Positions 646 through 29,736 of a stretch of DNA of 64,000 nt are shown one piece after another; positions within the stretch are counted from its first letter, which is position 1; every line of letters begins with the position of its first letter. Origin of the DNA: a virus (taxonomy: Duplodnaviria > Caudoviricetes); IMG/VR virus record IMGVR_UViG_3300008116_000002. The stretch is one strand, 5' to 3'. Below the pieces are notes generated by a model. The model saw only the letters and a list, made by a program, of their open reading frames with translations, ran no database searches and had not been told where the DNA came from. Made by a program: the position numbers and the translations under genes.

Positions 646-719
646 GCGGGATTAGTTTAATGGTAAAACGAAAGCCTTCCAAGCTCTAATCATCGGTTCG
701 ATTCCGATATCCCGCTCCA
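646..719 (+). tRNA. tRNA-Gly(UCC)
   Basis: Acceptor GCGGGAT/ATCCCGC, anticodon loop CT-TCC-AA, GTTCGATT, CCA end. Confidence 0.93.
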
Positions 720-723
720 TAAT

Positions 724-1011
724 ATGCGTATTCAAAAAGATGAGACTTACGAGCAATGGTCAGAAAAGGTTCGTCTTTTTGAATATGGAGTTGCACTGCA
801 AAGAATTGCTAAAGGCGACGATATAGATATTGTTTTGGAGTCTATGTCGAAAAAAATTAATCAAAAACTTTTGCATCCTTTGATCGAAAGCATCAAACAA
901 TCATGTCAAATAGATTATGATCCTTTGATCGCAAGAAAAAATTACGAAGAAAATTACTTAGGAAAAGCAAATCCTGTAGCAGATCATATGAATGATGTAG
1001 ACTTCTATTAA
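724..1011 (+). CDS. stand-alone protein resembling the glutamyl-tRNA reductase (HemA) C-terminal dimerisation domain
   Basis: VRLFEYGVALQRIAKGDDIDIVLESMSKKINQKLLHP resembles the HemA C-terminal VR..E..AL..L..G.D...L...L.NKLLH pattern; no catalytic or NADPH domains. Confidence 0.6.
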   Translation: MRIQKDETYEQWSEKVRLFEYGVALQRIAKGDDIDIVLESMSKKINQKLLHPLIESIKQSCQIDYDPLIARKNYEENYLGKANPVADHMNDVDFY

Positions 1012-1066: not shown

Positions 1067-1495
1067 ATGATAGATATTAATGAATTCATTAAAACTAGTA
1101 AACAAGAACGGCAATCTCATTTATTATTATCTGAAAAATGTATTGAACGTGGGGGAAATTCGACCAATCACAAGGGGGTATTAGCTCAGTATTTGAATAC
1201 CTCTATCCCTTCGGGTAGAATACTTTTATGCCATGCGTGCAACAATGAAAAATGTAGTAATCCAAAACATTTATATTGGGGTACAGACAAAGAAAATATT
1301 ACTGAAGATAATAAAAAATGGAAATCTGTTTGGGAAAGAACCATTGAAAAATATGGATATGAGGAAGCCTGCAGGATAAATTCTCGTAAGCAAATTGGAA
1401 ACAAAAATGGTTCGGGCAATAAAGGTAAATCTAAAACTGAAGAACATAAAAAAAAGATAGCAAAGTCTATTAAAAGCAATTATAATAAGATGTGA
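1067..1495 (+). CDS. HNH (His-Me finger) homing endonuclease with NUMOD3-like tail
   Basis: LCHACNNEKCSNPKHLYWGTDKEN motif; C-terminal KGKSKTEEHKKKIAKS; free-standing between tRNA genes. Confidence 0.8.
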   Translation: MIDINEFIKTSKQERQSHLLLSEKCIERGGNSTNHKGVLAQYLNTSIPSGRILLCHACNNEKCSNPKHLYWGTDKENITEDNKKWKSVWERTIEKYGYEEACRINSRKQIGNKNGSGNKGKSKTEEHKKKIAKSIKSNYNKM

Positions 1496-1505
1496 TGTAT
1501 TTAAT

Positions 1506-1591
1506 GCGAGTGTGGTGGAACGGTATACACTTTGGACTTAAAATCCAACGCCCGTAAGGGATTGAGGGTTCAAATCCCTCCACTCGTACCA
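1506..1591 (+). tRNA. tRNA-Leu(UAA)
   Basis: Acceptor GCGAGTG/CACTCGT, anticodon arm TTGGA-CTTAAAA-TCCAA, long variable arm, CCA. Confidence 0.93.
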
Positions 1592-1622: not shown

Positions 1623-2159
1623 ATGAAAACAGTAGGTGATAAACTTGAATCATTTTCAGTTACCGGTGTTAATCCCGGTAAGGATGATTTCTTTACTATT
1701 ACAGAAAAATCTTTTGAAGGTAAGTGGAAAGTAATTGTTTACTATCCAAAAGATTTTACATTCGTATGCCCAACAGAAATCGTAGCATATGATAAATTGT
1801 TCCAAGACTTTGCAGATCGTGATGCAGTATTGTTGACAGGTTCAACAGATAATGAATTCTGCAAACTAGCATGGCAACGTAGTCATGAAGATCTTTCAAA
1901 GATCAAGCATATTCAATTTGCTGACACCGCACGTGAATGGGGCGTATCTTTGATCGAGCAATTGGGTGTGTTCTACGCACCGGCAGGCGCAGCACTTCGT
2001 GCAACCTTTATCGTTGATCCAGAGAACACCATTCAGCACGTTACCGTAAACAACTTGAACGTTGGTCGTAGCCCAGAAGAAACACTTCGTATTCTTGATG
2101 CGCTACAAACTGGTGAACTATGTGCATGCAATCGCACAATCGGCGGAGAGACTCTATAA
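1623..2159 (+). CDS. ahpC: alkyl hydroperoxide reductase C (2-Cys peroxiredoxin)
   Basis: YPKDFTFVCPTEI peroxidatic motif; ALRATFIVDP; C-terminal GELCACN. Confidence 0.95.
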   Translation: MKTVGDKLESFSVTGVNPGKDDFFTITEKSFEGKWKVIVYYPKDFTFVCPTEIVAYDKLFQDFADRDAVLLTGSTDNEFCKLAWQRSHEDLSKIKHIQFADTAREWGVSLIEQLGVFYAPAGAALRATFIVDPENTIQHVTVNNLNVGRSPEETLRILDALQTGELCACNRTIGGETL

Positions 2160-2677
2160 TGACTGCTTGGGTAGATACACTAAAAGAAGTAAGTATTCCT
2201 GAGTATGCCAAGGATACTAAACTTAATTTAGATGCGGTTATCAAACGTAGTTCACTACCCGCAGAAGAGGCGGAGGCAATTGCTCTTGCAGCTGCCTTTG
2301 CTACAGGTAATAGTAAACTATGGACATGGCTTCACGATCAACTTACAGATCGTAAAGAGGCAGATGCCGCTCTTACCGCAGGCGCAATCATGGCACAAAA
2401 TAATGTATGGTATCCATATGTTGAAATGGCAGATGATGCGAACCTAAAAGGTCTTCCTGCTCAACTTCGTATGAATGCAATTGCAAGCCATGGTGGTACA
2501 ACAAAGGCAAGGTTTGAAGCATATAGTCTTGCAGCAAGTATTGTGGGCAAGTGTCATTTTTGTGTAAAAGCGCATTACGAAACTTTGAAGCAAGAAGGTT
2601 ATACTGTAGAACAATTACGAGACATTGGTCGTATTGCTGCAGTAATGAAAAGTGTTGCAAGTGTTTTAGCTAATTAA
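2159..2677 (+). CDS. ahpD: alkyl hydroperoxide reductase D
   Basis: IPEYAKDTKLNL N-terminus, ASIVGKCHFCVKAH CxxC-x3-H motif; ATG overlaps ahpC stop (TAATG), so start set at 2159. Confidence 0.92.
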   Translation: MTAWVDTLKEVSIPEYAKDTKLNLDAVIKRSSLPAEEAEAIALAAAFATGNSKLWTWLHDQLTDRKEADAALTAGAIMAQNNVWYPYVEMADDANLKGLPAQLRMNAIASHGGTTKARFEAYSLAASIVGKCHFCVKAHYETLKQEGYTVEQLRDIGRIAAVMKSVASVLAN

Positions 2678-2775: not shown

Positions 2776-3036
2776 ATGCTAGGTATTATAGAAAATGATC
2801 GTGTAGATAAAGGTAGATATACCTCGCAAGAAGCAGCAAATAAAGTAGGTGGCATTTATAATTTGGTTTTAATTGCAAGTGCCAGAGCACGAGAACTAAA
2901 AAAACATCAATCCGCAGATACTGCAAGAACTATGATTGTTGCGGCACTCGCAGATGTTGAAGATGGTAAGGTAGGTGCAGATTATCTGCGTAGGCATCAA
3001 AAAGATATTGACAAACAATATCGCAAAAGCAAATGA
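2776..3036 (+). CDS. rpoZ: RNA polymerase omega subunit homolog
   Basis: RYTSQEAANKVGGIYNLVLIASARARELK...IVAALADVEDGKVG matches the omega pattern RVTVEDA..KI.NRFDLVL.AA.RARQL...ALREI..G. Confidence 0.8.
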   Translation: MLGIIENDRVDKGRYTSQEAANKVGGIYNLVLIASARARELKKHQSADTARTMIVAALADVEDGKVGADYLRRHQKDIDKQYRKSK

Positions 3037-15098: not shown

Positions 15099-18002
15099 AT
15101 GGCAGATCTAAAATTATCTGATTTACTTGCCGCGACCGCTATATCTGAAGATACCTTCATTTATGGTATTCAAAACGGCATAAGTAAAAAGATTGGTTCA
15201 AATGTTTTATTCCAAAATCTAACCGACCCTATTCTTAAAGGTAGGGTCGTTTTAGATGGTGTGCAATTAATTAAGGGAACCGATACTAATCAAACTATTA
15301 GTGTAACTAAATCAAGAACTGAATTTAGTACAGGTTCTCTTGTGATGTACCCTAGTCTGCCAGAACCTTCTATTGATGGCGTTATTAAAATTCTAACCTT
15401 GGCAAATACGCAAGGTGGCAGAGTTGAAATAACTACAGCAAATTCTAGAATATTTCCTAATGTCTCAATTACTATGGATAAGCGTGGCGAGAGCCTTATG
15501 CTTATCTATAGTAGTAATTCTTATTCTAATGGCTGGGTTATCTTAGGAACAACACCTGGTCTGAAAACAAGTTTAGAATTACCTGAAGCAAATATTAGTG
15601 ATCAAAGAATTCGTAGAGCTATTAGTGCGGGCAACGAAACTATAATTTATGATGAAGCTAACGGTAAAATTCGCATAGGCGATCTTTCTAATACTGTAGC
15701 GCAAATTAGTTTAGCCAATGTAACAACTGACGATTTACGTGAAGGTAACATCAACTTATACTTCACAAATAATAGAGCAGTAACTGCTCTAATTCCGGAT
15801 TTAAATCAACTTAGAAAACCTAACGCAAATGTAATATACGTTTCAGTAAATGGTGATGACCGTTTAGACGGTTTAACAATGCCGAATGCTATTGCAAATA
15901 TTCATGTTGCATTAAGTAGAGTTAACGCATATTGGACTGTTAAAGTTTTCCCAGGCGTTTATACGTTATATGGAAATCCTGTTACTATTCCAAGAAAAGT
16001 TTCTTTGATCGGTAATGATTTAAGAACTTGTGATATCTATCCTGAGAATCAAACCGAAGACATGTTCTATATGAACAACGGAGCATATGTCAATGGGTTT
16101 ACATTCAGAGGGCATAGAGCAGCAAATCCGAATGATATTAAAAACGGATCTGCAGTATTCTCCTACAATCCCGATGGGTCTGCAGGAAATATTACAACCA
16201 GTCCATATATTCAGAATTGTTCGTCTATTACCACTACCGGCACTGGCGTAAGAGTAAATGGTAATTACGTGGGCGGACTACGTTCAATGGTTCTTGATGC
16301 CTATACGCAGTTTAATCAGGGTGGCATAGGTGTACACCTGTTGAACAAGGGATATATGCAGTTAGTATCTCTATTCACAATTTGCTGCGAATATTCCGTT
16401 CTTGCAGAACATGGTGGTTTTGGTTCCATTACTAACTCTAATAGCTCATTTGGTAATTTTGGTTTAGTTGCAGATGGTGCAAGTGAAACTTTATATTCTG
16501 CAAAAATAATTAGGCAAATTTCAAGTAGAGCAGTTGAAATAGAAACAACAGTTAAGCCAAATATTCAAGATAGATTATTAATGGCTAACTATAATCAAGA
16601 AAAATGTTTTAGAGACACTGGTCTAATTGTAGATTCCTTAGCGTTAGATTTAGCATATCAATCAAATACTCAGTCAAGATTCGCAGGATTACAGTACTGG
16701 GCACAGAGCGTATCTAAAGTATTAGATCAAAAAAATGAAGTTTCATCTACACTTAGATATCTAAAGACCTTAGCTACGAACGTAGTAATTAACAGTACTA
16801 ACTGGGATAATGCTGCCAATGTACCTTTTCAGGGAACAAATACACAAGTTATTTTGGGCGCCGCTCCCGGCGATGGCAACACTTCTAATTTGGTTGCAGG
16901 TGCGTTTGATTTATTTTTAGATGTTTATGAAAATGGTTTATTTGGCGTTACTGACAGGATAATACCTAATTCATATCCCGCAAATTCAAATCCAGTCATT
17001 CAAAATACTGCAAATTTACTTATTGCAAATAAGAACTTCATGCAGTCTGAAGCGCAGGCATTTTTGACAACAAATTTTCCATACGCGACATATATTCCCG
17101 GAACAAGTATGTTCCTAGATGCGGGTAAACTTATAGATGCTATAACTTTTGATGTTTTACATGGCGGTAATAGACAAACTATTACCAGGGCAATATTATA
17201 TTATGATTATATACAGGATTCAACCGCAGTTAGAAATCAAAGGGTTCAAACCAGCGGAGCTTTCTCCTTTATTAAAACCTTTATAGACGATATTCTAACT
17301 CTAACGCCTATTGCAAATACTTATCAAACTACTTATACTCAAAATACTACTATAGGTAATGCAGTAACCAGTAGCGAAGTTTTATATGTAAGAAATAGGA
17401 TTGATGACATAACAAATATTATTGATAACGGTCCTGATTATGAAAATGTTCAATATAATATTGAACCGATCTCGCTTACCGCAAATACTAACCCCAATGT
17501 AGTTCTCGCCACTCAGATTATTCTGGCAAACAGAGATTTTATTAGAGCAGAAGTACTTGAGTATGTAAATCAAAATTGGAAAGATTTAAGTAATGGTACA
17601 AGAAACTTCTATACAGTAAACGAATCAACTGACGTATCTTCTAACCTTTGCATTGTTACTTTTGATGAGAAAATTCTTGCCGTAGATAGACCTTTGGCAA
17701 ATAATAGAATTAGTTTTTATCAGGGAAGTTACATATCAGGTTCTAGTCATACTTTTGAATATGTAGGTGCGGGAACTCAATTATTGCCTGCCTTACCAAT
17801 GAATGGCGGCATACCTGTACAAGACCATGAAGTTGTTGAAACTCGTGGAGGTTCAGTATACTATACAAGTACAGACCATAAGGGTGATTTTAGAATTGGT
17901 AACGAACTACTAATTAATAGAGCAACTGGTACGATCAACGGTAGAACATTTAATAAGAGCTTGTTCGCGGTTATGACCCCGTACATTTTGGCATTACAAT
18001 AA
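15099..18002 (+). CDS. large tail/virion structural protein with beta-helix-like region
   Basis: 967 aa; YVSVNGDD, SPYIQNCSSI, C-terminal STDHKGDFRIG...MTPYILAL; paralog of 25591. Confidence 0.65.
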   Translation: MADLKLSDLLAATAISEDTFIYGIQNGISKKIGSNVLFQNLTDPILKGRVVLDGVQLIKGTDTNQTISVTKSRTEFSTGSLVMYPSLPEPSIDGVIKILTLANTQGGRVEITTANSRIFPNVSITMDKRGESLMLIYSSNSYSNGWVILGTTPGLKTSLELPEANISDQRIRRAISAGNETIIYDEANGKIRIGDLSNTVAQISLANVTTDDLREGNINLYFTNNRAVTALIPDLNQLRKPNANVIYVSVNGDDRLDGLTMPNAIANIHVALSRVNAYWTVKVFPGVYTLYGNPVTIPRKVSLIGNDLRTCDIYPENQTEDMFYMNNGAYVNGFTFRGHRAANPNDIKNGSAVFSYNPDGSAGNITTSPYIQNCSSITTTGTGVRVNGNYVGGLRSMVLDAYTQFNQGGIGVHLLNKGYMQLVSLFTICCEYSVLAEHGGFGSITNSNSSFGNFGLVADGASETLYSAKIIRQISSRAVEIETTVKPNIQDRLLMANYNQEKCFRDTGLIVDSLALDLAYQSNTQSRFAGLQYWAQSVSKVLDQKNEVSSTLRYLKTLATNVVINSTNWDNAANVPFQGTNTQVILGAAPGDGNTSNLVAGAFDLFLDVYENGLFGVTDRIIPNSYPANSNPVIQNTANLLIANKNFMQSEAQAFLTTNFPYATYIPGTSMFLDAGKLIDAITFDVLHGGNRQTITRAILYYDYIQDSTAVRNQRVQTSGAFSFIKTFIDDILTLTPIANTYQTTYTQNTTIGNAVTSSEVLYVRNRIDDITNIIDNGPDYENVQYNIEPISLTANTNPNVVLATQIILANRDFIRAEVLEYVNQNWKDLSNGTRNFYTVNESTDVSSNLCIVTFDEKILAVDRPLANNRISFYQGSYISGSSHTFEYVGAGTQLLPALPMNGGIPVQDHEVVETRGGSVYYTSTDHKGDFRIGNELLINRATGTINGRTFNKSLFAVMTPYILALQ

Positions 18003-18012
18003 AGGATTAAAA

Positions 18013-18375
18013 ATGGCAACGTTAGTTCCCTTAAATACTTTTAAAACAATTGCGGCAAATATTACTACGAATCAAACATTACTCTATACTACTCCTGAAG
18101 AAGTCGCAACAATTATTCTTACAGCTCAGGTAAGTAATACGGGAAGCGCCGACGCTAATGTTACATTTATTCATAGATCCAATGTATTAGTAGGTGGCAC
18201 TAGAGTAATTACTGATACAGAATTGGTTAAAGATTTTGACATCCCTACAAAAGATGCATCATCAGTTATTGTAGGTAAAATTGTTTTAGAAGAAAATCAG
18301 GCAGTTCTGGTTAGAGGTAGCGCAAATGCTACTCTAAAAATTCTTTTAAGCTTGTTAGAAACTTCATTAGTATAA
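18013..18375 (+). CDS. small beta-rich structural protein
   Basis: LLYTTP...IILTAQVSN...KIVLEENQ; paralog of 29743 and 61657. Confidence 0.6.
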
Positions 18376-18379
18376 AAAA

Positions 18380-20149
18380 ATGTCCTTAAAAAGTCTAAGC
18401 GGAAGAGTAAGGGTAAAAAACCCGGCAAGTGCGGATCCGGCACGATATAGCTATTTAAACGTAGAAAATGCGGAACCTAATTTAGGGTTACCGGATGCAG
18501 ATGGCTACATTTTAAAGGGTGATGTAAACGGAAGACGATATTGGACTGCAGGTGCTGCCAACGTAAGACCTTCTCTTAGATATGACTACATTGCAAGCGA
18601 AGGGCAAAATGTTTTTAGTAATACTACCGTAAGTTTAACAGGTAGATCTTTATTCTTTGCAAATACAGATGTAGTTTTAGTTCATATCAACGGGGTATTA
18701 CTTTCTCCAACTGGTAATGTTCTTTTAGGTGCAGAACAGATACCTGACTACACCTTGGGCGATAGTTCTATAACATTGTCCGAAGCTGCATCCGCAGGCG
18801 ATATTGTTACAATTATGCCTGTTCTTGGTGGGTCTAGTGGAGATCGAGGACCAGCTGGACCAACAGGCCCGCAGGGTGCTACGGGTGCAACTCTTTTAGT
18901 TGGTGGACCTACAGGTGCAACCGGAGTTCGAGGAGCAACAGGTGCCACTGGTGCAACAGGACCTACGGGACCGCAAGGCTCTACAGGATTAGGTGCCACA
19001 GGCGCAACAGGGCCAACCGGTCCGACGGGACCTACGGGGCCTACAGGCCCCGCAGCAGCGACAGGTGCAGAAGGTTCGACCGGAGCCACAGGCCCAACCG
19101 GTGCTACGGGAATTGGTGCAACAGGTCCAACAGGTGCCACGGGTGCGACAGGTCCTAGCGGCCCATCGGGATTTATAGGACCATCTGGGCCTTCGGGTCC
19201 TACAGGATCTACAGGTTCGACCGGAGCCACCGGACCTACGGGACCAACAGGGCCTTCGGGACCAACAGGACCATCTGGACCCACTGGCCCATCGGGATTT
19301 ATCGGACCTACCGGACCAAGCGGACCTACCGGACCTAGTGGGCCGACGGGACCAACAGGGCCTTCGGGACCAACCGGACCAAGCGGACCTACGGGAGTCT
19401 CGGGGCCTAGTGGCCCTTCAGGGCCTTCCGGACCTAGTGGAGCAAGAGGACTTCAAGGACTTCAAGGAATACAAGGAATACAAGGATTGCAAGGAAATCC
19501 TGGCTCCCAAGGTATTCAAGGGCCAACAGGACCTACTGGGCCCACTGGGCTTACTCCCGCAATAGGCGGATCGACTACGCATATACAGTACAATAACAAC
19601 GGATCCCTATCCGGAGATTCAAACTTAACATGGACGGCTAGCGGATCAGGTAGAAATTTAATAGTTGGTGGATCAGATGGCACAGCAAATCATGGAATAG
19701 TTTCTAGATTCTTTAATTTCAATTCTTCCGGCACGACGATATATTATAACGTCGCATCGACTTGGATTTCTTTTGATATTGCAAGTGGGCAAAAATTCCG
19801 AATCGCAAACAACGGAGACGTAACTGCGGCGGGTGACGTTATTGCGTATGGTGTATCTGATATTAGACTAAAGAATAATATTAAGGTTATAGACAAGGCG
19901 TTAAATAAAGTATTACAGCTAGAAGGTATAACTTATAATTGGAACAATATTGCTGCTGAAAAAATAGAAAAATCTACAACAGAAAGAGAATCTGGTATTA
20001 TTGCACAACAAGTTAAAGAAGTTTTGCCTGAGGCTGTTTCTGAAAGAGCAGATGGTTATTTAGGAGTACGTTACGAAAAACTAATACCTCTTTTAGTTCA
20101 AGCAATTAAGGAGTTGAAGGAAGAAGTAGAAGAACTTAAAAATCGTTAA
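18380..20149 (+). CDS. collagen-like tail fibre with C-terminal intramolecular chaperone (peptidase S74)
   Basis: Long Gly-X-Y tract; SDIRLKNNI...GIIAQQV...[16 protein letters not shown]. Confidence 0.85.
18839..19556 (+). repeat. collagen Gly-X-Y repeat (GPT/GAT/GPS-rich, ending in GIQ/GLQ)
   Basis: Translated triplets visible directly. Confidence 0.95.
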
Positions 20150-20167
20150 TTTTATTGAAAGTATATT

Positions 20168-21853
20168 ATGAGATTTCATATTTTGGGAATACCTCATACG
20201 GTAACATCTAAAGAATATAATGCCTGCGCATATACGCAAAAGGTTGTTAAATTTGGTAAGATGATGACACAGAGAGGGCATACTGTTATTCATTATGGGC
20301 ATGAAGATTCTGATCTTATTTGTTCTGAACACGTTAGTGTAATTACAAACAAAGATTTAGAAATTGCATATGGTAATTATGATTGGAGAAAAAACTTTTT
20401 TAAGTTTGACGTAAATGATCATGCTTATCAAACATTCTACAAAAATGCAATTGCTGAAGTAGGTAAAAGAAAGCAAAAGAATGATTTTATTTTACCTTTT
20501 TGGGGGCATGGTGTAAGACCTATTTGCGACGCTCATCAGCATGATATGATTGTAGTTGAGCCAGGTATAGGATACGCCGGCGGACATTGGGCAAGATGGA
20601 AAGTATTTGAATCCTATTCTATAATGCACGCATTTTATGGAATGCAGGGAGTCGGGCATTGTCAGTCTGATTGGTATGATGTAGTTATACCAAATTACTT
20701 TGACGAAGAAGATTTTATTTATTCTGAGGAAAAAGAAGATTATATTTTGTTTTTGAGCAGGGTGTACGAAGGCAAGGGTATTCATATTGCAGTACAAGCA
20801 GCACAAGCAGCGGGAGTTAAGTTAATTGTTGCAGGTCAAAATCCAGACAATCTTCAATTCCCTGATAATGTTACTTACGTTGGTTATGCAGATGTAGAAA
20901 CAAGAAAAAGATTGATGGCAAAAGCCAAAGGATTAATTGTAGCATCGTTGTATATGGAACCATTTGGTGGTGTGCAAATAGAAAGTTTATTATCCGGAAC
21001 ACCGACTATTACTACAGATTGGGGCGCATTTACAGAAAATAATATACAAGGTGTTACTGGATATAGATGCAGAACATTTGCAGATTTTGTAAACGCAATG
21101 AAAAATGTGGACAAAATCAAATCATCGGATTGTAGAAAACAAGGGGAAAGATTTTTACTTCAGAATGTTGCCCCAATGTATGAGAAGTATTTTCAAGATG
21201 TGCTAAATGTATATACCGGAAAAGGCTGGTATGAAATTAAAAAGAAAAAGGAACCAAAAAAAATTTTTATAGACTGCGGAACACATATGTTCCAAGGATT
21301 TGAGAAACACAGATTAAATTTAAACATAGATAATAAATGGGTAATACATGGGTTTGAAGCTAATCCATATGTTTACGAAGCAGCAAAAGATTTAAGAAAA
21401 AATTACATATCTGAAGGTTTAAATTTTAATCATCATAATCTAGCGGTAGGAACTAAAACTAAATCATCCACAGTTAATTGTGCTTGGGCAGGATATTTGG
21501 GAGGGTTTTTGCACGTTGGATCCAACACGTTAAAAAATCCTCCAGCAGTTGATACAGTTTTTGGTGAGAATTTTGATTATGTGGAAAAAAGAATACATGA
21601 AATTAATTTTTCAGACTTTGTTAAAAACATATGTGATGACGAAGATTATTCAATTTTAAAAATGGATATTGAGGGTTCGGAATTTGAGGTTTTGGATCAT
21701 ATGATATTAACGGGCGCTATTAAATTATTCAAAGAGGTTTATATAGAATTTCATCAAAGATTTTTTGATAATCCCTCTTTTTATGAACAAAAAATTCTAA
21801 AGTATAAAGAATTTTTTAAAGAAAATAATATAATTCTAAGGGAAGATGGATAA
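20168..21853 (+). CDS. GT4-type glycosyltransferase fused to FkbM-family methyltransferase
   Basis: N-part: LFLSRVYEGKG, YMEPFGGVQIESLLSGTP; C-part: FIDCGTH, GFEANP, LKMDIEGSEF. Confidence 0.85.
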   Translation: MRFHILGIPHTVTSKEYNACAYTQKVVKFGKMMTQRGHTVIHYGHEDSDLICSEHVSVITNKDLEIAYGNYDWRKNFFKFDVNDHAYQTFYKNAIAEVGKRKQKNDFILPFWGHGVRPICDAHQHDMIVVEPGIGYAGGHWARWKVFESYSIMHAFYGMQGVGHCQSDWYDVVIPNYFDEEDFIYSEEKEDYILFLSRVYEGKGIHIAVQAAQAAGVKLIVAGQNPDNLQFPDNVTYVGYADVETRKRLMAKAKGLIVASLYMEPFGGVQIESLLSGTPTITTDWGAFTENNIQGVTGYRCRTFADFVNAMKNVDKIKSSDCRKQGERFLLQNVAPMYEKYFQDVLNVYTGKGWYEIKKKKEPKKIFIDCGTHMFQGFEKHRLNLNIDNKWVIHGFEANPYVYEAAKDLRKNYISEGLNFNHHNLAVGTKTKSSTVNCAWAGYLGGFLHVGSNTLKNPPAVDTVFGENFDYVEKRIHEINFSDFVKNICDDEDYSILKMDIEGSEFEVLDHMILTGAIKLFKEVYIEFHQRFFDNPSFYEQKILKYKEFFKENNIILREDG

Positions 21854-21940
21854 CAATTGAGATATAATTTTGGCGAGTAACCTATAGTAATTGAATTCTT
21901 TTTTTCATGAAATGCTATCTACTATCCAATTTTGGATTAA

Positions 21941-21948
21941 TATAAATA
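21941..21948 (+). promoter_or_regulatory. T4-type late promoter (TATAAATA)
   Basis: Exact motif followed by ATAGAG, as at 53597. Confidence 0.75.
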
Positions 21949-21972
21949 ATAGAGAAAAGTCTTGGAAAAAGA

Positions 21973-24900
21973 ATGACAAGAGCACGAGTATTTTCAAAAG
22001 GTTTGGGTGGCGGAGGCGGAGCAAATGCTAATATAAATTTAGCAGATGTCCTACCTCTTCTTACTACTGCTAATGTAATTGAGATTTTCCCAAATGTTTA
22101 CTACAGTAATGCTAGAGTATTTGCAAATATTAATCTTGCAAGTCTAGATGATCTGTTTGATGTAGGAAATACTACTGGTAAGGTCGCAGGACAAGGGCTA
22201 GTTTGGAATGGAAATGTTTGGACATTTGGTAACATTTCTGCAAATTTAAGTCTATTTACTACTGACGATTTACCTCAGGGCAATACCAATTTTTACTTCT
22301 CTAATGCTCTGGCTAGACGAGCATTTACTGCAGGAACCCCTTCAATTGTAATCGACTGGAATCTAGGTACCATTTCGGCTAACCTAGAAGCAGTTGCTGC
22401 GTCTGCAAATACAACTGATACATTACCAGAAGGCGCTGTTAATCTTTACTATAGAGACTCGAGAGCGCACGCTAATTTAAAATTAGCTAGACTTTCTGAT
22501 TTAAGTGATGTATATACAAAAGGTGATATCCTACCAACAGGTCATCCTGGGGCAGGAACTCCCTTAACTCAAGTAAATACCGGATATACTTTAGTTTGGC
22601 ATGAAGAATCTAATTCATGGATTGCCGGCAGAGTAGTATCTGAAGAATCAAATGTTGCTAATTCTGCAATAGAAGCCAATACTGTATTAAGTCTTGGTAA
22701 TCTTACAACAAATGATTTAGCTGAAGGCAATGTAAATTTCTATTTTACCAATGCTCGTGTTTTAGCCAATGTAGAAAGAATGAGTATCAACGTATTGGCA
22801 GATGTCAATACTTCAGATAGTCAAGAAGGTTACATACTTACTTACATTGGATCTACTTGGGTTGCAAGATCTCTAGGTAATATCTCAAATATTGATATTG
22901 TAGTATCCACAAACTTCGCAAACACCGCAGGGTTAGCTAATGTTGCTCTAATAGCCAATACTGCAAATTTAGCTTTAGTAGCTAGTGTTGCAAACTTAGC
23001 CCTTAATACCCAATTAGCTAATTCTGCGACCTTCGCATTTACTGCAAACGTTGCGAACCTTGCGTTAGTAGCATTGACTGCTTTAACAACAAATGCGGCA
23101 ACACAGGTTCAGAATTTAAATAATTTTACTACTGCTAATTTAGCAGAAGGTGTAAATCTTTACTATACAAATGCAAGAGTTCTATCTAATGTAGAACAAA
23201 TGAGTATTAATGTATTGGCAGATGTCAATACAACAAATGTTTCCGTTGGTACAGGCATTGGCTATGTTTTAACTTGGACAGGTTCAGAATGGGCGCCTAA
23301 TGCCTTGCCCGGTGCAAGCGATACTTCAGGTTTTGCAGAAAGATCCAATGTAGCTAACGTAGCGTTGTCCGCAGTATCTACAGAAAGAGCTAATGTAGCA
23401 AATACTGTTTTAACGCTAAGTAATTTTACAACTGCGGATTTACGCGAATCTTTTAGCAATCTTTATTACACATCTCAAAGAGTACGAGATGATATTCAAA
23501 ATGCTATTCTCAATAAAGATATTGAGATAGGCGATGCAATTGTTAATGGTAATCTTAATGTTAGGGGAAATTTAACATTACTAAATAGCGATAATGTTTT
23601 AGTTAAAGCCAGAAGAATAACTTTAGCTTCACAGGCATCTGGAGTATCCCAGGCAGAAGGCGCTGGCATCTATATTGAAGGTGCCAATGTAGCATTCGCA
23701 TATAGTCAGACAAATGATGGTTGGGGTTTAGATAAAAATCTAACCATCAATGGTAACCTATTACCTGCAGTAAATGGACAATATAACTTAGGTCAACCCG
23801 GAAAGTTATGGAGAGGCGTTTATATTGGCGCCCAAACCATCTTCTTAGGCAATACCTCTATTGGTGAAAATCCAACGGGCGGATTAATCGTTCAAGATCA
23901 GTTTGGTAATCCTGCAGGAATTGATTTATCTAATATTGTTGGTACCGAATATGTTTCGATTAACAGATTAATAGGTAATACAAACCCCGAAATAGAAAAT
24001 CAAGCCTATATCGGCGGTAATGTTAAGCAATTCACATCCGGCAAGACGGGTAATATTTACTTTGGTATTTTAAAGGATGGAACTGTTAACGAATTCGCAG
24101 GTATGCGAGTTATTGAAGCCAATATTGATGGTAATGTAAGAAGTGATGTTCTATTCTACAATGATTATGAAAATAGAAATAATTCTACAATTAGATTGGG
24201 ATTATATGGTGATGGTAATATTGGTTTAACAAGTAATCTTGTTATATTCAATAACATTAATTTAATTGATAGATTTGGTAATTTTGTAGGTAACGCATTC
24301 TTAGGTACTACAGACGTAGCAATAGAAAAAGGCGGCACCGGCGCTAACACCCGACCAAATGCAAGAAGAAATCTATTCTCAGATTTCTCGGGCGGCCTTG
24401 TAGCTAAGATTGGCGGAGCAACAAATACACTTGTAGCAACATCTATTGTTGCAGGTACAGGTGTTTATGTAACGGATGGTGATGCACAGAATGGTAGTCC
24501 AACTATTGCTATTGGTCAGAACGTACATCCTACTGCATCAGTTATATTTAGTAACGTTACTGTTAATGGACAATTAAACAGCGATGACATTACTGCGGCA
24601 GTTATTACCGCAAGAACAGATTTAATTGTTCAAGGTAATTTGACAATTCGTGGTAATATTACTACAATTAATTCTACCACAGTAGTAATTGATGATAAGA
24701 ATTTAGTACTTGCGAATAATGCGATCGATGCATCGCAAGCGGATGGTGCGGGCATTACAATTAATGGTGCCAATGCTACAATTAATTACGCAAGTGGCGG
24801 CGACAAGTTTGTAGTAAATAAAGCATTAGAAGTACAAGGCAATTTAACTTTAGGTTCGTATTCTGTTACCGCAGAACAAGTTAATGTTACTGGCGATAAA

Positions 24901-25587
24901 GTAATTCTTCTTTCATCGGTTGCAGGATCACCAACTTCCAATGCAAGCTTAGTAGTAAATAGAGGATCCAGTCCAGATGTAGATTTAAAATGGAATGAAT
25001 CTACTGATCGTTGGGAATTTACTAACGACGGCACAAACTATTTTGTTTTACCCAGACCAGAAGAATATGACAATGTAATATATGATGTTTCAATACAGAG
25101 TGGAACCACTCCTGCTCTAAGTGCTAATTTAATTCTAAATGGAAGAAAATCTGGTAATGTAATTTCTACAGATAGAATTGAAATTGTTGGTTCTGGTTTA
25201 GTAAAAGTAACAAGAACAAATGATGACAAGTTAAATATTGCAGCAGGCGTTGGTACAATTACAGTAACAAATATTGATAATGCCGGAAATTATGTTCTAG
25301 ATCAATTTCCGCTAGGAACCTATAGATCAGCAAAGTACGTTTATAGTGCTTTAACGACATCATATATTTCTGGCGGCCCACATCACGCAACAGGAGAAAT
25401 TTTAGTATTGCATGATGGTGCAAATGCGTATATTACTCAGTATGCAATGTTGACGTCTACAGACGATGATGTAATTAATTTGGACGCCGACATAAATAGT
25501 GGGAACCTAAGATTGTTAGCAACTGCAACGTCGGGTGGTCATTTGGTTACCTTAAAATTAACTGGTATAACTTATACTGAAATATAA
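21973..25587 (+). CDS. long tail-fibre-like structural protein
   Basis: 1204 aa, Asn/Ala/Thr-rich, recurring TxxLxEGxxNLY(F/Y)TNxR and IDDKNLVLAN...ADGAGITI modules. Confidence 0.65.
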   Translation: MTRARVFSKGLGGGGGANANINLADVLPLLTTANVIEIFPNVYYSNARVFANINLASLDDLFDVGNTTGKVAGQGLVWNGNVWTFGNISANLSLFTTDDLPQGNTNFYFSNALARRAFTAGTPSIVIDWNLGTISANLEAVAASANTTDTLPEGAVNLYYRDSRAHANLKLARLSDLSDVYTKGDILPTGHPGAGTPLTQVNTGYTLVWHEESNSWIAGRVVSEESNVANSAIEANTVLSLGNLTTNDLAEGNVNFYFTNARVLANVERMSINVLADVNTSDSQEGYILTYIGSTWVARSLGNISNIDIVVSTNFANTAGLANVALIANTANLALVASVANLALNTQLANSATFAFTANVANLALVALTALTTNAATQVQNLNNFTTANLAEGVNLYYTNARVLSNVEQMSINVLADVNTTNVSVGTGIGYVLTWTGSEWAPNALPGASDTSGFAERSNVANVALSAVSTERANVANTVLTLSNFTTADLRESFSNLYYTSQRVRDDIQNAILNKDIEIGDAIVNGNLNVRGNLTLLNSDNVLVKARRITLASQASGVSQAEGAGIYIEGANVAFAYSQTNDGWGLDKNLTINGNLLPAVNGQYNLGQPGKLWRGVYIGAQTIFLGNTSIGENPTGGLIVQDQFGNPAGIDLSNIVGTEYVSINRLIGNTNPEIENQAYIGGNVKQFTSGKTGNIYFGILKDGTVNEFAGMRVIEANIDGNVRSDVLFYNDYENRNNSTIRLGLYGDGNIGLTSNLVIFNNINLIDRFGNFVGNAFLGTTDVAIEKGGTGANTRPNARRNLFSDFSGGLVAKIGGATNTLVATSIVAGTGVYVTDGDAQNGSPTIAIGQNVHPTASVIFSNVTVNGQLNSDDITAAVITARTDLIVQGNLTIRGNITTINSTTVVIDDKNLVLANNAIDASQADGAGITINGANATINYASGGDKFVVNKALEVQGNLTLGSYSVTAEQVNVTGDKVILLSSVAGSPTSNASLVVNRGSSPDVDLKWNESTDRWEFTNDGTNYFVLPRPEEYDNVIYDVSIQSGTTPALSANLILNGRKSGNVISTDRIEIVGSGLVKVTRTNDDKLNIAAGVGTITVTNIDNAGNYVLDQFPLGTYRSAKYVYSALTTSYISGGPHHATGEILVLHDGANAYITQYAMLTSTDDDVINLDADINSGNLRLLATATSGGHLVTLKLTGITYTEI

Positions 25588-25590
25588 TAA

Positions 25591-28500
25591 ATGCAAGATT
25601 TTAGAGTAAAATCCGGACTAAGAGTCGATGGTAATGTATATGGCGTTACCAATTTAACCGTTACCTATAGCGGTTCCTTTGGTAATATTAGAGTTACCGG
25701 AGATATTGTAGGTAATGTTGTTGGCACAGTTAGTAGCTTAGCCAATCATACTACATCAAATCTTGCAGAGGGTAACAATCTATATTATACAAATGCCAGA
25801 GCATACGCTAATTTAACTTTAGCCAGTATCAATGCTCTGGCGGATGTTGATACTGTTAATGTTTCTCCGCTATTAGGATATGGATTACTTTGGGACGGTT
25901 CAAAATGGGCGCCAAACGTAATCACAGTTTCAGATACAGAATTAGCGAATGTTGCTAATAGTGTTCTTGGTATTGTACAACAATCTATTTCATCATTCCA
26001 AGCAAATGCTGCTCTCGTATCGGAAGAAGCAAACGTTGCTAATGTTGTTAGAACTTTAGCGAATTTCACTACTGCAAACTTAGCAGAAGGTACTAATCTT
26101 TACTTTACTTCTGAAAGAGTGCTAGATGCCTTAGAAGGCAATAATGTTACAGTTAATAATTTAACTGTATCTGGTGATTTAGAAGTACAAGGAAATATTG
26201 TAACTATTAATACTGCAACACTAGTTGTAGAAGATAAAAATATTCTTCTTGCGAACGGTGCAATTAATGCCGGCCAAGCTAACGGTGCAGGTATTACCAT
26301 TGCGGGTGCAAATGCATCCATTACATATGATTCAGCCAACGATCAATTTGAAACTAATAAAGATTTAGAAGTACAAGGTAATGTAAATATTGCCGCAGCA
26401 ACTGAAGCAGCAAATGGATCGACTACTGGCGCACTAACAGTTACAGGTGGCGCATATATTGCTGGTAATTTGAATGTTGCTGGTGCAATATTCTCAGAAG
26501 CAGAGCCGGTAATTAATTTAAGTGCAATGAATCAGAGCTTGGCGGTATTAAGATCGCAAGTTCTCGCACCTTCAAGTAACGTATTATATGTAAATGGCAA
26601 CGGTGATGATGCAAACGATGGTTTCTCATATGCAAACGCTCTTGCTAATATTCACACTGCATTAAATCGCGCACAACCTTGGACAACAGTTTTTGTTAAG
26701 AGCGGCGATTATGTACTTTATAATCAGCCAGTAACAATTAAGCAAAGAGTTGGTTTGGTTGGTGATAACTTAAGAACAACAACTGTTAGACCAAGTCAAG
26801 CAAACGTAGATATGTTCTACGTTGAAAACGCATCATATGTAACAGGAATTACATTTAGAGATCATATTGCACCTGCTGCAGTATTCTCATATAATCCAGA
26901 TGGTTCCGCTGGAACTATTGTAACAAGCCCGTACATCCAAAATTGCTCATCCATTACAACTACCGGTACAGGTATGCGTGTAAATGGTAATTATGTAAGC
27001 GGATTACGTTCAATGGTTTGTGATTCTTATACCAATACTAATGAAGGTGGTATAGGAATTCATATGTTGAACAGAGGCTATACTCAGTTAGTTTCTGTAT
27101 TTACTATTTGCTGTGATATTGCTGTACTTTGCGAGGATGGAGGTTTCTGTTCTATCACAAACTCCAACGCATCGTTTGGTAGATTGGGTCTATTAGCAAG
27201 AGGTGTTAGCCAGCCGCTAAACTTCGGAAAGTTCGATTCAATCGTAGATACGGATGAAGGAACCAAATATTTAATTAAGGATTTGAATTCAAGACCGAAC
27301 TATGGTGACGCAGTTCTGTTTGCCAATTACAATCAAGAAAAATGTTCTAGAGACACAGGTTTAATTGTAGATTCATTGGCATTTGATTTGGCATATCAGT
27401 CAAATACACAATCTGCTTTCTCTGGTTTACAATATTGGGCACAAGCAGAATCTGCTATTCCAAACCAGGCAGAGGAAACAATTGCCGCATTTAATTATGC
27501 TAAAGATTTAGCAACGAATGTTGCATTAAATATTACCATTACATCTCCAAGACAAGCAAATGTTACCCAAACATCTGGCACTGCTGGGGCATGGGTATCG
27601 AGAATTTCTGACGGATTTGATTTAGTTGCAAATATTATTACCGGCGGAACGATAGGTGTAACTGATAGAATTATTCCAAATGGATTCCCTGCAAATACAA
27701 ATGTAGCTGTTAATGATGCAGCCAATTTAGTTCTTCTGAACAAGTCATTTATTCAGAAAGAAGTAATTGCATTTGTTAATCAAGAATATCCAGGATTCTT
27801 TAGTAATGCAAGTAATTTTATTGATGCAGCAAATGCTGCATCAAAATGCGAAAGAGATACAGGTTACTTACTTGATAGTATAGTATTTGACTTCCTACAT
27901 AATGGTAATAGACAAGCTATTACTTCGGGTGTATATTATTATAATAATGATTTCAATACTACACAAATTGCCAATCAAATTCCGCAAACAACTGCGGCAT
28001 ATGATTTTATTGGATCCATAGTTGATGATATTGTAAGAAATAAAAAGGTTGCGGCATATAATCAAGAAAAATGTGAAAGAGATACTGGTCTAATCGTAGA
28101 TTCTCTAGCATTTGATTTAGCTTATAATAGTAATACGCAATCCAACTTCGCAGGTTTACAATACTGGTCTCAGACATCTTCGGCAATCCCTAACCAGTCT
28201 GAAGAAACTGTGGCAGCAATTAATCATGCCAAAGTATTAGCTGCAAATGTTGCACAAAATATTACTATTGCTTCTCCAAAGCAAGCTAATATTCTGCAAG
28301 TATCTGGTACAGGTGGTAGCGCACTAGAGTCAAATACAATTACTAATAATTATAACTTAATTATTGATATTATTAATAATGGAACTGTTGGTGTAACTGA
28401 TAGAATTGTTCCTAACAGATTCCCCGCTAATTCTGATGTAAATGTTAATAATGCTGCGAATTTAATTCTTTTGAATAGATCATTTATCCAGGCAGAAACA

Positions 28501-29736
28501 ATTGCGTATATAAATCAAACATACCCAGGATTCTTTGCTAACGCTAATAACTTTATTGATCCTGTAAATGCAGAAGCAAAATGTTCAAGAGACGTTGGAT
28601 TCATTTTAGATAGCGTAGCTTTTGATTTAAGACATGATGGTAATAGACAATCGATTCAATCGGGTGTGTTCTACTATAACTTCAGTGCAAACACAACTCA
28701 AATTAATGATCAGATTGTACAGACCGGCGCAGCATATAATTTTATTGGTAGTATCATAGATGAGGTTGTAAGAGGAGTTCCTGTAGCAAATGTAAGGCAA
28801 AATGTCTATACTCAAAATACTACAGCAGCGACTGCCGCAACCTTTGAAGAAGCAAACATTGTTCTGCAGAAAATTAGTTTAATTAATAATATTATTACTA
28901 GTGGGCCAAATGTTGCTCTGGCCAAAACATCATTAAGCGGAAATGTTATTACAATCTCCACAAATGTGTCAAATGCAGTTAAATTAATTTTAGCAAACAA
29001 AGATTTTATTAGAGCAGAGACAATTGAATTTGTAAATGCTACATTGTTCGATCCTCCGTATCAGTCTGTTTATAGACAAAATACTACAGCTTTCCCTGCG
29101 GCAAGTTTAACCGAAGCAAACTTAGTATTAAATAATATAGATCTAATTACAAATATTATTGAGAATGGTGCAAATGCTGCTCCTGCTAGAAGACCAATAT
29201 CTTATAGTACGTTAAGTAATGACTCAAATGTAATTAATGCAGCTAAAATTATTCTATCTAATAGAGACTTTATTGTTGCAGAAGTAAATGGATACATTAA
29301 TAGAAATTGGGCAAATATTAGTAATGGAACAGTTGCTTTCTATACAGTAGCTAACAGCACACCGCTTGTAGGAAATACTTCGTTAGTTACTTTCCTTGAG
29401 GGTGCGATAGAAGATATTACTCCGATAGCAAATTCTACAGTGAGTTTCCATCAACCAAGTTATATTTCTGCGTTGGGTTACACATTTGAATATATTGGTT
29501 CGGGCACTAATTTACAAACGGCATTACCGTATAATGGCGGATTCCCGATTCAAGAAAATGAAGTTACTGAAGAAAAAGGCGGAAGAGTTTATTTCACAAG
29601 TACAGACCAACAGGGCGACTTTAGAATTGGTACAGAACTAGTTTTCAATAGAGTAGATGGAACAATTTCAGGTAGAACATTTACCAAGGCATTGTTCTCA
29701 GTTATGACACCATATATATTAGCAGTCGAAGGATAA
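25591..29736 (+). CDS. large structural protein, paralog of 15099, with four KCxRDxG helical repeats
   Basis: 1381 aa; shares SPYIQNCSSITTTGTG and GDFRIG...MTPYILA with 15099; internal duplication of YNQEKCxRDTGLIVDSLAFDLAY. Confidence 0.65.
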   Translation: MQDFRVKSGLRVDGNVYGVTNLTVTYSGSFGNIRVTGDIVGNVVGTVSSLANHTTSNLAEGNNLYYTNARAYANLTLASINALADVDTVNVSPLLGYGLLWDGSKWAPNVITVSDTELANVANSVLGIVQQSISSFQANAALVSEEANVANVVRTLANFTTANLAEGTNLYFTSERVLDALEGNNVTVNNLTVSGDLEVQGNIVTINTATLVVEDKNILLANGAINAGQANGAGITIAGANASITYDSANDQFETNKDLEVQGNVNIAAATEAANGSTTGALTVTGGAYIAGNLNVAGAIFSEAEPVINLSAMNQSLAVLRSQVLAPSSNVLYVNGNGDDANDGFSYANALANIHTALNRAQPWTTVFVKSGDYVLYNQPVTIKQRVGLVGDNLRTTTVRPSQANVDMFYVENASYVTGITFRDHIAPAAVFSYNPDGSAGTIVTSPYIQNCSSITTTGTGMRVNGNYVSGLRSMVCDSYTNTNEGGIGIHMLNRGYTQLVSVFTICCDIAVLCEDGGFCSITNSNASFGRLGLLARGVSQPLNFGKFDSIVDTDEGTKYLIKDLNSRPNYGDAVLFANYNQEKCSRDTGLIVDSLAFDLAYQSNTQSAFSGLQYWAQAESAIPNQAEETIAAFNYAKDLATNVALNITITSPRQANVTQTSGTAGAWVSRISDGFDLVANIITGGTIGVTDRIIPNGFPANTNVAVNDAANLVLLNKSFIQKEVIAFVNQEYPGFFSNASNFIDAANAASKCERDTGYLLDSIVFDFLHNGNRQAITSGVYYYNNDFNTTQIANQIPQTTAAYDFIGSIVDDIVRNKKVAAYNQEKCERDTGLIVDSLAFDLAYNSNTQSNFAGLQYWSQTSSAIPNQSEETVAAINHAKVLAANVAQNITIASPKQANILQVSGTGGSALESNTITNNYNLIIDIINNGTVGVTDRIVPNRFPANSDVNVNNAANLILLNRSFIQAETIAYINQTYPGFFANANNFIDPVNAEAKCSRDVGFILDSVAFDLRHDGNRQSIQSGVFYYNFSANTTQINDQIVQTGAAYNFIGSIIDEVVRGVPVANVRQNVYTQNTTAATAATFEEANIVLQKISLINNIITSGPNVALAKTSLSGNVITISTNVSNAVKLILANKDFIRAETIEFVNATLFDPPYQSVYRQNTTAFPAASLTEANLVLNNIDLITNIIENGANAAPARRPISYSTLSNDSNVINAAKIILSNRDFIVAEVNGYINRNWANISNGTVAFYTVANSTPLVGNTSLVTFLEGAIEDITPIANSTVSFHQPSYISALGYTFEYIGSGTNLQTALPYNGGFPIQENEVTEEKGGRVYFTSTDQQGDFRIGTELVFNRVDGTISGRTFTKALFSVMTPYILAVEG

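Follow-up and report, generated by a model that had tools for sequence, protein, structure and literature searches.

The gene at 724-1011 of the window (the whole 64-kb stretch of DNA analysed here) encodes a 95-aa protein that corresponds to a single part of a larger one, its interaction domain, namely the dimerisation domain of glutamyl-tRNA reductase (GluTR or HemA). This protein, referred to here as MINI, is a candidate member of a haem-to-bilin module: many related phages carry genes for haem oxygenase (HO) and ferredoxin-dependent bilin reductase (FDBR), either nearby or in the same genome. It also looks interchangeable with a viral 5-aminolevulinate (ALA) synthase, vAlaS. We tentatively propose that MINI docks on the pairing surface of host GluTR and thereby sustains the ALA supply for the haem-to-bilin module.

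The source of the window is a T4-like phage. All of the large open reading frames (ORFs) lie on one strand at approximately 37% G+C, the gene content includes tail-fibre, baseplate, virion-protein and ribonucleotide-reductase genes, and T4-type gp23, UvsX and gp41-like genes are present in relatives. The features around MINI are as follows:

183-256: tRNA-Thr, part of the tRNA array around MINI
483-635: 50-aa Cys-rich ORF (CGCG...C..WH) without a family match, between a 66-aa hydrophobic ORF and tRNA-Gly
646-719, plus strand: tRNA-Gly(UCC), ending 4 nt short of the start codon of MINI
724-1011, plus strand: MINI, an ATG-to-TAA ORF for the 95-aa stand-alone GluTR dimerisation-domain protein
1067-1495, plus strand: HNH homing-endonuclease gene (PHROG endonuclease families, E 1e-12)
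1506-1591, plus strand: tRNA-Leu(UAA), which is conserved on the downstream side of MINI in the lineage of the window
1623-2677: two overlapping genes between tRNA-Leu and tRNA-Met, one for a peroxiredoxin of the AhpC type (Pfam E 1e-21) and one for a CMD protein resembling AhpD (E 3e-12)
2685-2761: tRNA-Met, part of the tRNA array around MINI
2776-3036: 86-aa protein matching RNA polymerase omega (Rpb6/RpoZ; Pfam 26.9 bits, cut-off 26)

The gene had been described from the letters alone as sitting inside a tRNA cluster, and it does so, with Thr, Gly, Leu and Met tRNAs spread over 183-2761. The order tRNA-Gly(UCC), 4 nt, MINI and then tRNA-Leu(UAA) is common to the window and to the related loci L001, L012, L108, L205 and L207; across the lineage members examined, the 3' end of tRNA-Gly lies 4-5 nt from the MINI start without a Shine-Dalgarno sequence, which is also missing ahead of the start codon in the window. 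The junctions between tRNA-Gly and the MINI start are located as follows:

window: 646-726
L001: 5923-6003
L012: 9923-10003
L108: 5922-6003
L205: 2923-3003

Because the 4-nt gap is kept in relatives and the Shine-Dalgarno sequence is absent, the MINI mRNA is probably freed by tRNA processing, which would leave its 5' end almost leaderless, and tRNA-Leu(UAA) is likely to be the 3' processing boundary of the transcript. The HNH gene is an extra in the window, missing at the same site in L001, L012 and L108, and is a feature of the local layout that lies outside MINI function. In L001 and L012, an ORF equal in length to that of the 86-aa omega-like protein comes after MINI. The tRNA-cluster siting of MINI is peculiar to the 160-kb-class lineage of the window, whereas the copies in jumbo phages lie away from tRNAs. 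A reading in which the tRNA neighbourhood reflects the tRNA substrate of GluTR was rejected, both because tRNA is bound by a part of the enzyme other than the dimerisation domain and because the jumbo-phage copies are so placed.

The homology of MINI to the GluTR dimerisation domain was evident in several profile comparisons. The Pfam model PF00745 (GlutR_dimer) matched MINI at 26.2 bits and E 1e-5, against a gathering cut-off of 22.9 bits, with MINI residues 9-61 aligned to profile positions 29-81 of 99, and was matched independently by 111 of 113 full-length relatives, the best at E 8.5e-10. When a profile of the MINI family was compared with the C-terminus of Burkholderiales HemA, MINI 8-58 aligned with HemA 343-393 (hhalign 97.5%, E 5e-12), and the top PDB match of the same profile, a weak one (E 0.071), was Methanopyrus kandleri GluTR (1GPJ, residues 339-393). 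The sequence-only reading, which held that the 95-aa protein resembles the C-terminal dimerisation helices of GluTR and nothing else, is therefore borne out by a Pfam score above the gathering cut-off and by the profile comparison with the GluTR dimerisation domain; the motif quoted for it is also present, as V16 R17..E20..A24 L25..I28..G31.D33...L38 E39....K44 I45.Q47 K L L H51. The best-kept MINI positions (E20, A24, I28, G31, V37, M41, K48, H51 and P52) are the positions that are invariant in four Burkholderiales HemA C-termini. Helices 1 and 2 of the GluTR dimerisation domain (PF00745; M. kandleri 1GPJ; Arabidopsis GluTR-DD) are thus homologous to MINI, and the two share the core E..A...[IL]..G.D...VL..[ML]S.....K[LM][LM]H.P, although the GluTR motif H-x-P is H-P in MINI.

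The likeness stops at these two helices. The third helix of GlutR_dimer (profile positions 82-99) is unmatched and is replaced in MINI by a family-specific segment (residues 62-95) that is not GluTR-like and that contains the conserved Y74, D87 and H88, the last two within a conserved A-D-H motif at 86-88. The AlphaFold2 monomer model (pLDDT 89) has three helices, at 9-29, 34-60 and 67-79, the third being predicted although it lies outside the GlutR_dimer alignment. A phmmer search of MINI against the PDB gave no match, and fold searches with the monomer model (Foldseek against the PDB and VIA-align wide) returned generic helical hairpins only, with a best Z of 7.0; these matches speak neither for nor against a GluTR fold. 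Unlike GluTR, which is encoded by cells, MINI is encoded by phages as 95 aa alone, without the catalytic domain, the NADPH domain or the spinal helix. An identity as the enzyme glutamyl-tRNA reductase (EC 1.2.1.70) was consequently rejected, given that this 95-aa protein has neither the PF05201 catalytic domain nor an NADPH-binding domain, and the recurrent IMG label 'glutamyl-tRNA reductase' on MINI-family proteins is a mis-annotation.

The MINI family is large and almost purely viral. Searched exhaustively with phmmer, a set of 1.84 billion representatives yielded 165 clusters (50% identity) that match MINI at E<=1e-3; among the matches listed (150 of the 165), all are 50-151 aa long and none is a full-length HemA, and a typical family protein has approximately 92 aa. 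In the ESM Atlas, the clusters that belong to this family have a viral share of 94-100%. The family is absent from cultured phages: tblastn with three family members against 50,697 GenBank phages gave no true match, and the start of the window, compared with these phages by megablast, likewise had no match. PHROGs contained no family for MINI, and longer, fused forms were not found in word-index searches with a single protein and a profile, which constitute weak evidence on this point. Could so short an ORF be a decaying remnant of the 3' end of a captured hemA, or a chance ORF, without function? Its length, the missing Shine-Dalgarno sequence in the window and its mobile HNH neighbours would suit such an origin. 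However, dN/dS values of 0.15-0.22 against orthologues (three pairs) indicate purifying selection, the 165 clusters keep both the length and the N- and C-terminal motifs, synteny is kept across several phage lineages, and the predicted fold is confident. MINI is a real gene, and these conservation data effectively refute a functionless remnant, the probability of which we regard as next to negligible.

Nor do these phages encode a C5 pathway of their own, which is ruled out by the finding that the catalytic domain GlutR_N (PF05201) occurred in 0 of 50 related phage records, five of which are at least 92% complete, and hemL likewise in 0 of 50. With neither a catalytic domain nor HemL encoded by the phage, MINI must either work alone or have a host protein as its partner. 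To model the first of these possibilities, MINI was combined with the C-terminal 114 residues (300-413) of a Burkholderiales HemA, chosen as a stand-in because the phage AhpC is closest, among cellular genomes, to that of Burkholderiales (63-70% identity). This similarity is a weak hint that the host is a betaproteobacterium, in which case it would rely on the C5 pathway. AhpC matches at 73-82% were also seen in metagenome-assembled genomes (MAGs) that belong to unrelated phyla; short contigs carry most of these matches, some of which may come from misbinned phage contigs. The MINI-HemA model scored 0.76, a mark reached by 58 of 80 solved complexes and by 2 of 110 mismatched pairs, and the best of three controls scored 0.02; the runs shared at least 68% of contacts, with a partner pLDDT of at least 67. 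In the predicted interface, MINI 9-61 faces HemA 337-386 in a pseudo-symmetric copy of the homodimer contact, with the same antiparallel packing of a helix pair on the partner helices as in GluTR, and MINI takes the place of the second GluTR protomer. Thus, a complex with HemA, as envisaged in the sequence-only reading, is predicted to form on the dimerisation helices, but the model may recall the solved GluTR homodimer and, for that reason, its passing score may show likeness only.

GluTR is known to dimerise via three helices per protomer, and the resulting V-shaped dimer is thought to cradle HemL (PMC6399207). Placed at the homodimer interface, MINI would make GluTR monomeric and break this dimer, which reads more naturally as inhibition. 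MINI might then be a dominant-negative protein that caps the GluTR dimerisation helices, disrupts the hand-over to HemL and shuts the C5 pathway, such that Glu-tRNA(Glu) goes to translation and HO scavenges existing haem for iron and bilin. The lack of a catalytic domain and the position of the gene within a tRNA array in the lineage of the window are in line with this idea. 'Microproteins' limited to a dimerisation domain classically inhibit their targets, and we counted this logic in its favour. The sparing of tRNA-Glu has also been listed as a possible benefit of vAlaS (PMC11480375). By a rough estimate, however, GluTR accounts for ~1% of the Glu-tRNA flux in a non-phototroph, hence the saving would be small, and the jumbo-phage copies are not near tRNAs.

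MINI might alternatively work independently of GluTR, as a homodimer of its own that either carries haem or bilin or serves as an adaptor for HO, FDBR, DUF454 or ClpS; the residues involved would be W12, Y74, D87 and H88, which are conserved specifically in this family, and also H51. The conserved Y74, D87 and H88 of the family-specific C-terminal third indeed lie outside the modelled interface, and the recombinant GluTR dimerisation domain is stable alone (PMC4726326). On the other hand, the positions that MINI keeps best are the ones that real GluTR dimerisation domains hold invariant, and Pfam and PHROGs recognised no haem- or bilin-binding motif in MINI. We consider it probable that MINI acts through the GluTR pairing surface; the nature of its effect there was assessed from gene context.

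Within the 64-kb window, MINI has no haem gene nearby; HO (PF01126), FDBR (PF05996) and vAlaS (TIGR01821) were not found anywhere in it. Pfam matches of the large fibre proteins encoded at 15099-29736 were to collagen, the S74 chaperone and, weakly, endosialidase, and a Pfam scan (E<=0.01) found no phycobiliprotein domain in them. HO was likewise not found in five fragments of the window lineage that are only 11-37% complete. Relatives carry more. Among 23 IMG/VR records selected for the MINI family, 13 encode both HO and FDBR, and most of the remaining ten are fragments with an estimated completeness of 2-37%. ClpS is encoded directly upstream of HO in 12 of these 13, and in the jumbo clade the genes follow one another on one strand in the order MINI-[PfkB]-[DnaK]-Hsp20-ClpS-HO-[hydrolase]-FDBR. 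In L170, which represents a separate lineage, MINI abuts HO, an arrangement that would also suit a GluTR-independent adaptor. Two genomes, G001 (364 kb) and G022 (164 kb; 98% complete, with a strong gp23 match), encode MINI and HO-FDBR 63-82 kb apart. One genome rated complete, G018, contains MINI without HO, and its contig ends ~0.9 kb after MINI.

As a neutral control, 80 loci were chosen by a neighbouring Metallophos gene. MINI and HO were both present in 17 of these loci, MINI alone in 3, HO alone in 4 and neither in 56 (Fisher p = 6e-11, a value that still includes shared ancestry). The three of the 20 MINI loci that lacked HO were all cut by a contig end; all 17 assessable copies lay 0.9-4 kb upstream of Hsp20-ClpS-HO-bilin reductase, and MINI occurred in 0 of the other 56 loci that lack HO. 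Gene context thus strongly links MINI to haem supply. An earlier suggestion that the protein might retune haem supply gains from this link.

Several further arrangements were observed in this region. The string (DnaK)-Hsp20-ClpS-HO-FDBR, followed by CsgF- and CsgG-like genes, occurs in L009 (11137-15776) and in ~30 other loci. Two tandem bilin-reductase paralogues (~227-238 aa and 221-222 aa) lie downstream of HO in L130, L134, L125 and L118, and a gene for a protein of 404-408 aa separates ClpS from HO in L125, L130 and L134. ClpS is an adaptor of ClpAP.

To examine the relation of MINI to vAlaS, we used 50 viral records picked for HO alone, regardless of MINI. MINI was present in 17 of them and vAlaS in 18, all 18 calls being above the cut-off of the model; no record had both, and 15 had neither, one of which is 92% complete. 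vAlaS was also found in 0 of the 23 family-selected records. The raw one-sided Fisher test for exclusivity gave p = 5.7e-5, but the records are related phages, many of them fragments, and co-occurrence statistics of this kind are inflated because the phages share ancestry. On the HO tree, the MINI and vAlaS labels interleave, with at least seven switches by parsimony, at least four of which are forced by well-supported branches. A phylogeny-aware pair test yielded four well-supported independent contrasts, in which vAlaS changed opposite to MINI in two to three of the four and in the same way in none; with so few contrasts the test is underpowered (sign test p ~0.25).

In L184, MINI is encoded on the minus strand and overlaps the start of the DUF454 gene, and in L189, a close relative of L184, and in L145 and L120, vAlaS occupies the same place with the same DUF454 overlap. 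These loci are:

L184: 1897-2599, MINI overlapping DUF454
L189: 2222-3932, vAlaS overlapping DUF454
L145: 3639-5280, vAlaS overlapping DUF454
L120: 1635-3330, vAlaS overlapping DUF454

Among sister phages, MINI and vAlaS are therefore alternatives at one position of the operon, immediately ahead of DUF454. DUF454, a YbaN-like membrane protein, is also encoded ~1.2 kb from MINI in L002, L005 and L101.

This exchange bears on both alternatives introduced above. If MINI shut off the host C5 pathway, it would naturally be paired with the vAlaS bypass, yet the two co-occur in neither the HO-selected nor the family-selected records, none of the 18 vAlaS carriers has MINI, the two swap in a single slot, and MINI travels with haem-consuming enzymes. 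A dominant-negative protein that spares Glu-tRNA for translation, as the sequence-only reading had suggested, thus fares poorly against the vAlaS distribution, the shared slot and the haem-consuming neighbours; we judge it unlikely, while keeping it as a live rival. A role independent of GluTR, to which the translational coupling of MINI to DUF454 in L184 would lend itself, leaves both the exclusivity with an ALA-making enzyme and the shared slot unexplained, and we rate it lower still.

We lean, with some hesitation, towards a sustaining rather than a dominant-negative effect of MINI, because MINI and vAlaS swap in one slot beside the same haem-consuming genes. GluTR controls entry into haem synthesis in hosts that use the C5 pathway. 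Under the proposed mechanism, the two GluTR-like helices of MINI would dock on the same helices of host GluTR, or on their usual binder, and the phage would thereby control the ALA supply while HO and bilin reductase turn haem into bilin. Lon and ClpAP are reported to degrade HemA that has haem bound, and HemA is more stable when haem is limiting (PMC6399207). MINI may keep ALA and haem flowing, for example if GluTR were freed from haem-triggered inhibition or from turnover by Lon and ClpAP; both the sign of the effect and the link to proteolysis are what we infer. vAlaS would then bypass the host step and MINI would retune it, and both would secure the ALA supply. A more specific form of the proposal, in which MINI is a viral regulatory subunit that pairs with host GluTR as a heterodimer and releases the enzyme from feedback by haem and from proteolysis, is more doubtful.

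Several known systems can be compared with MINI. Tetrapyrrole cassettes have been described in large freshwater phages (bioRxiv 10.1101/2020.02.13.942896), and phage cassettes of the type vAlaS-HemO-PcyA/X are proposed to maintain ALA production outside the control of haem, vAlaS being a proven phage enzyme that makes ALA itself (PMC11480375). MINI shares with these cassettes the phage groups, the HO-FDBR module, the neighbourhood and the slot upstream of DUF454. Whereas vAlaS is catalytic, MINI lacks a catalytic domain, and any effect it has would need to run through a host protein. The vAlaS paper (PMC11480375) makes no mention of MINI, and a full-text literature search for glutamyl-tRNA reductase with phage or auxiliary metabolic gene (AMG) terms returned the vAlaS work only. 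In plants, the TPR domain of FLU binds the GluTR dimerisation domain and represses ALA synthesis (PMC4726326). The control of plant GluTR by FLU (and GBP) provides a precedent for the dimerisation domain as a regulatory docking surface; however, FLU is a plastid TPR membrane protein unrelated in sequence to MINI, which mimics the target surface and not the regulator. To our knowledge, FLU has no bacterial counterpart, and we know of no bacterial regulator that binds the GluTR dimerisation domain. The closest parallel in design is provided by the 'microproteins' Id and LITTLE ZIPPER, small proteins that retain nothing of a larger multidomain protein except its interaction domain and that inhibit eukaryotic transcription factors. 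Like them, MINI is an interaction domain alone; unlike them, it would target a metabolic enzyme and comes from a virus.

Phage genes for HO, for bilin reductase and, since 2024, for ALA synthase are known, also from phages of non-photosynthetic hosts. Among the auxiliary genes that phages carry for tetrapyrrole metabolism, MINI would encode a domain mimic and not an enzyme: a widespread, unstudied fourth member of the phage haem-to-bilin module that mimics the regulatory and pairing surface of the host gatekeeper enzyme. Its analysis corrects a recurrent 'glutamyl-tRNA reductase' database label, and the either/or pattern of MINI and vAlaS offers a handle on the purpose of the module, pointing to an ALA supply that feeds haem and bilin production. 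As a small and easily expressed protein, MINI could also serve as a tool for tuning bacterial GluTR, which is known to limit the bioproduction of ALA and haem. If MINI does act as a regulatory subunit in a heterodimer with GluTR, it would be the C5-pathway equivalent of the phage ALA synthase and would be the first phage factor to control the rate-limiting step of tetrapyrrole synthesis through mimicry of an enzyme domain and not through an enzyme supplied by the phage.
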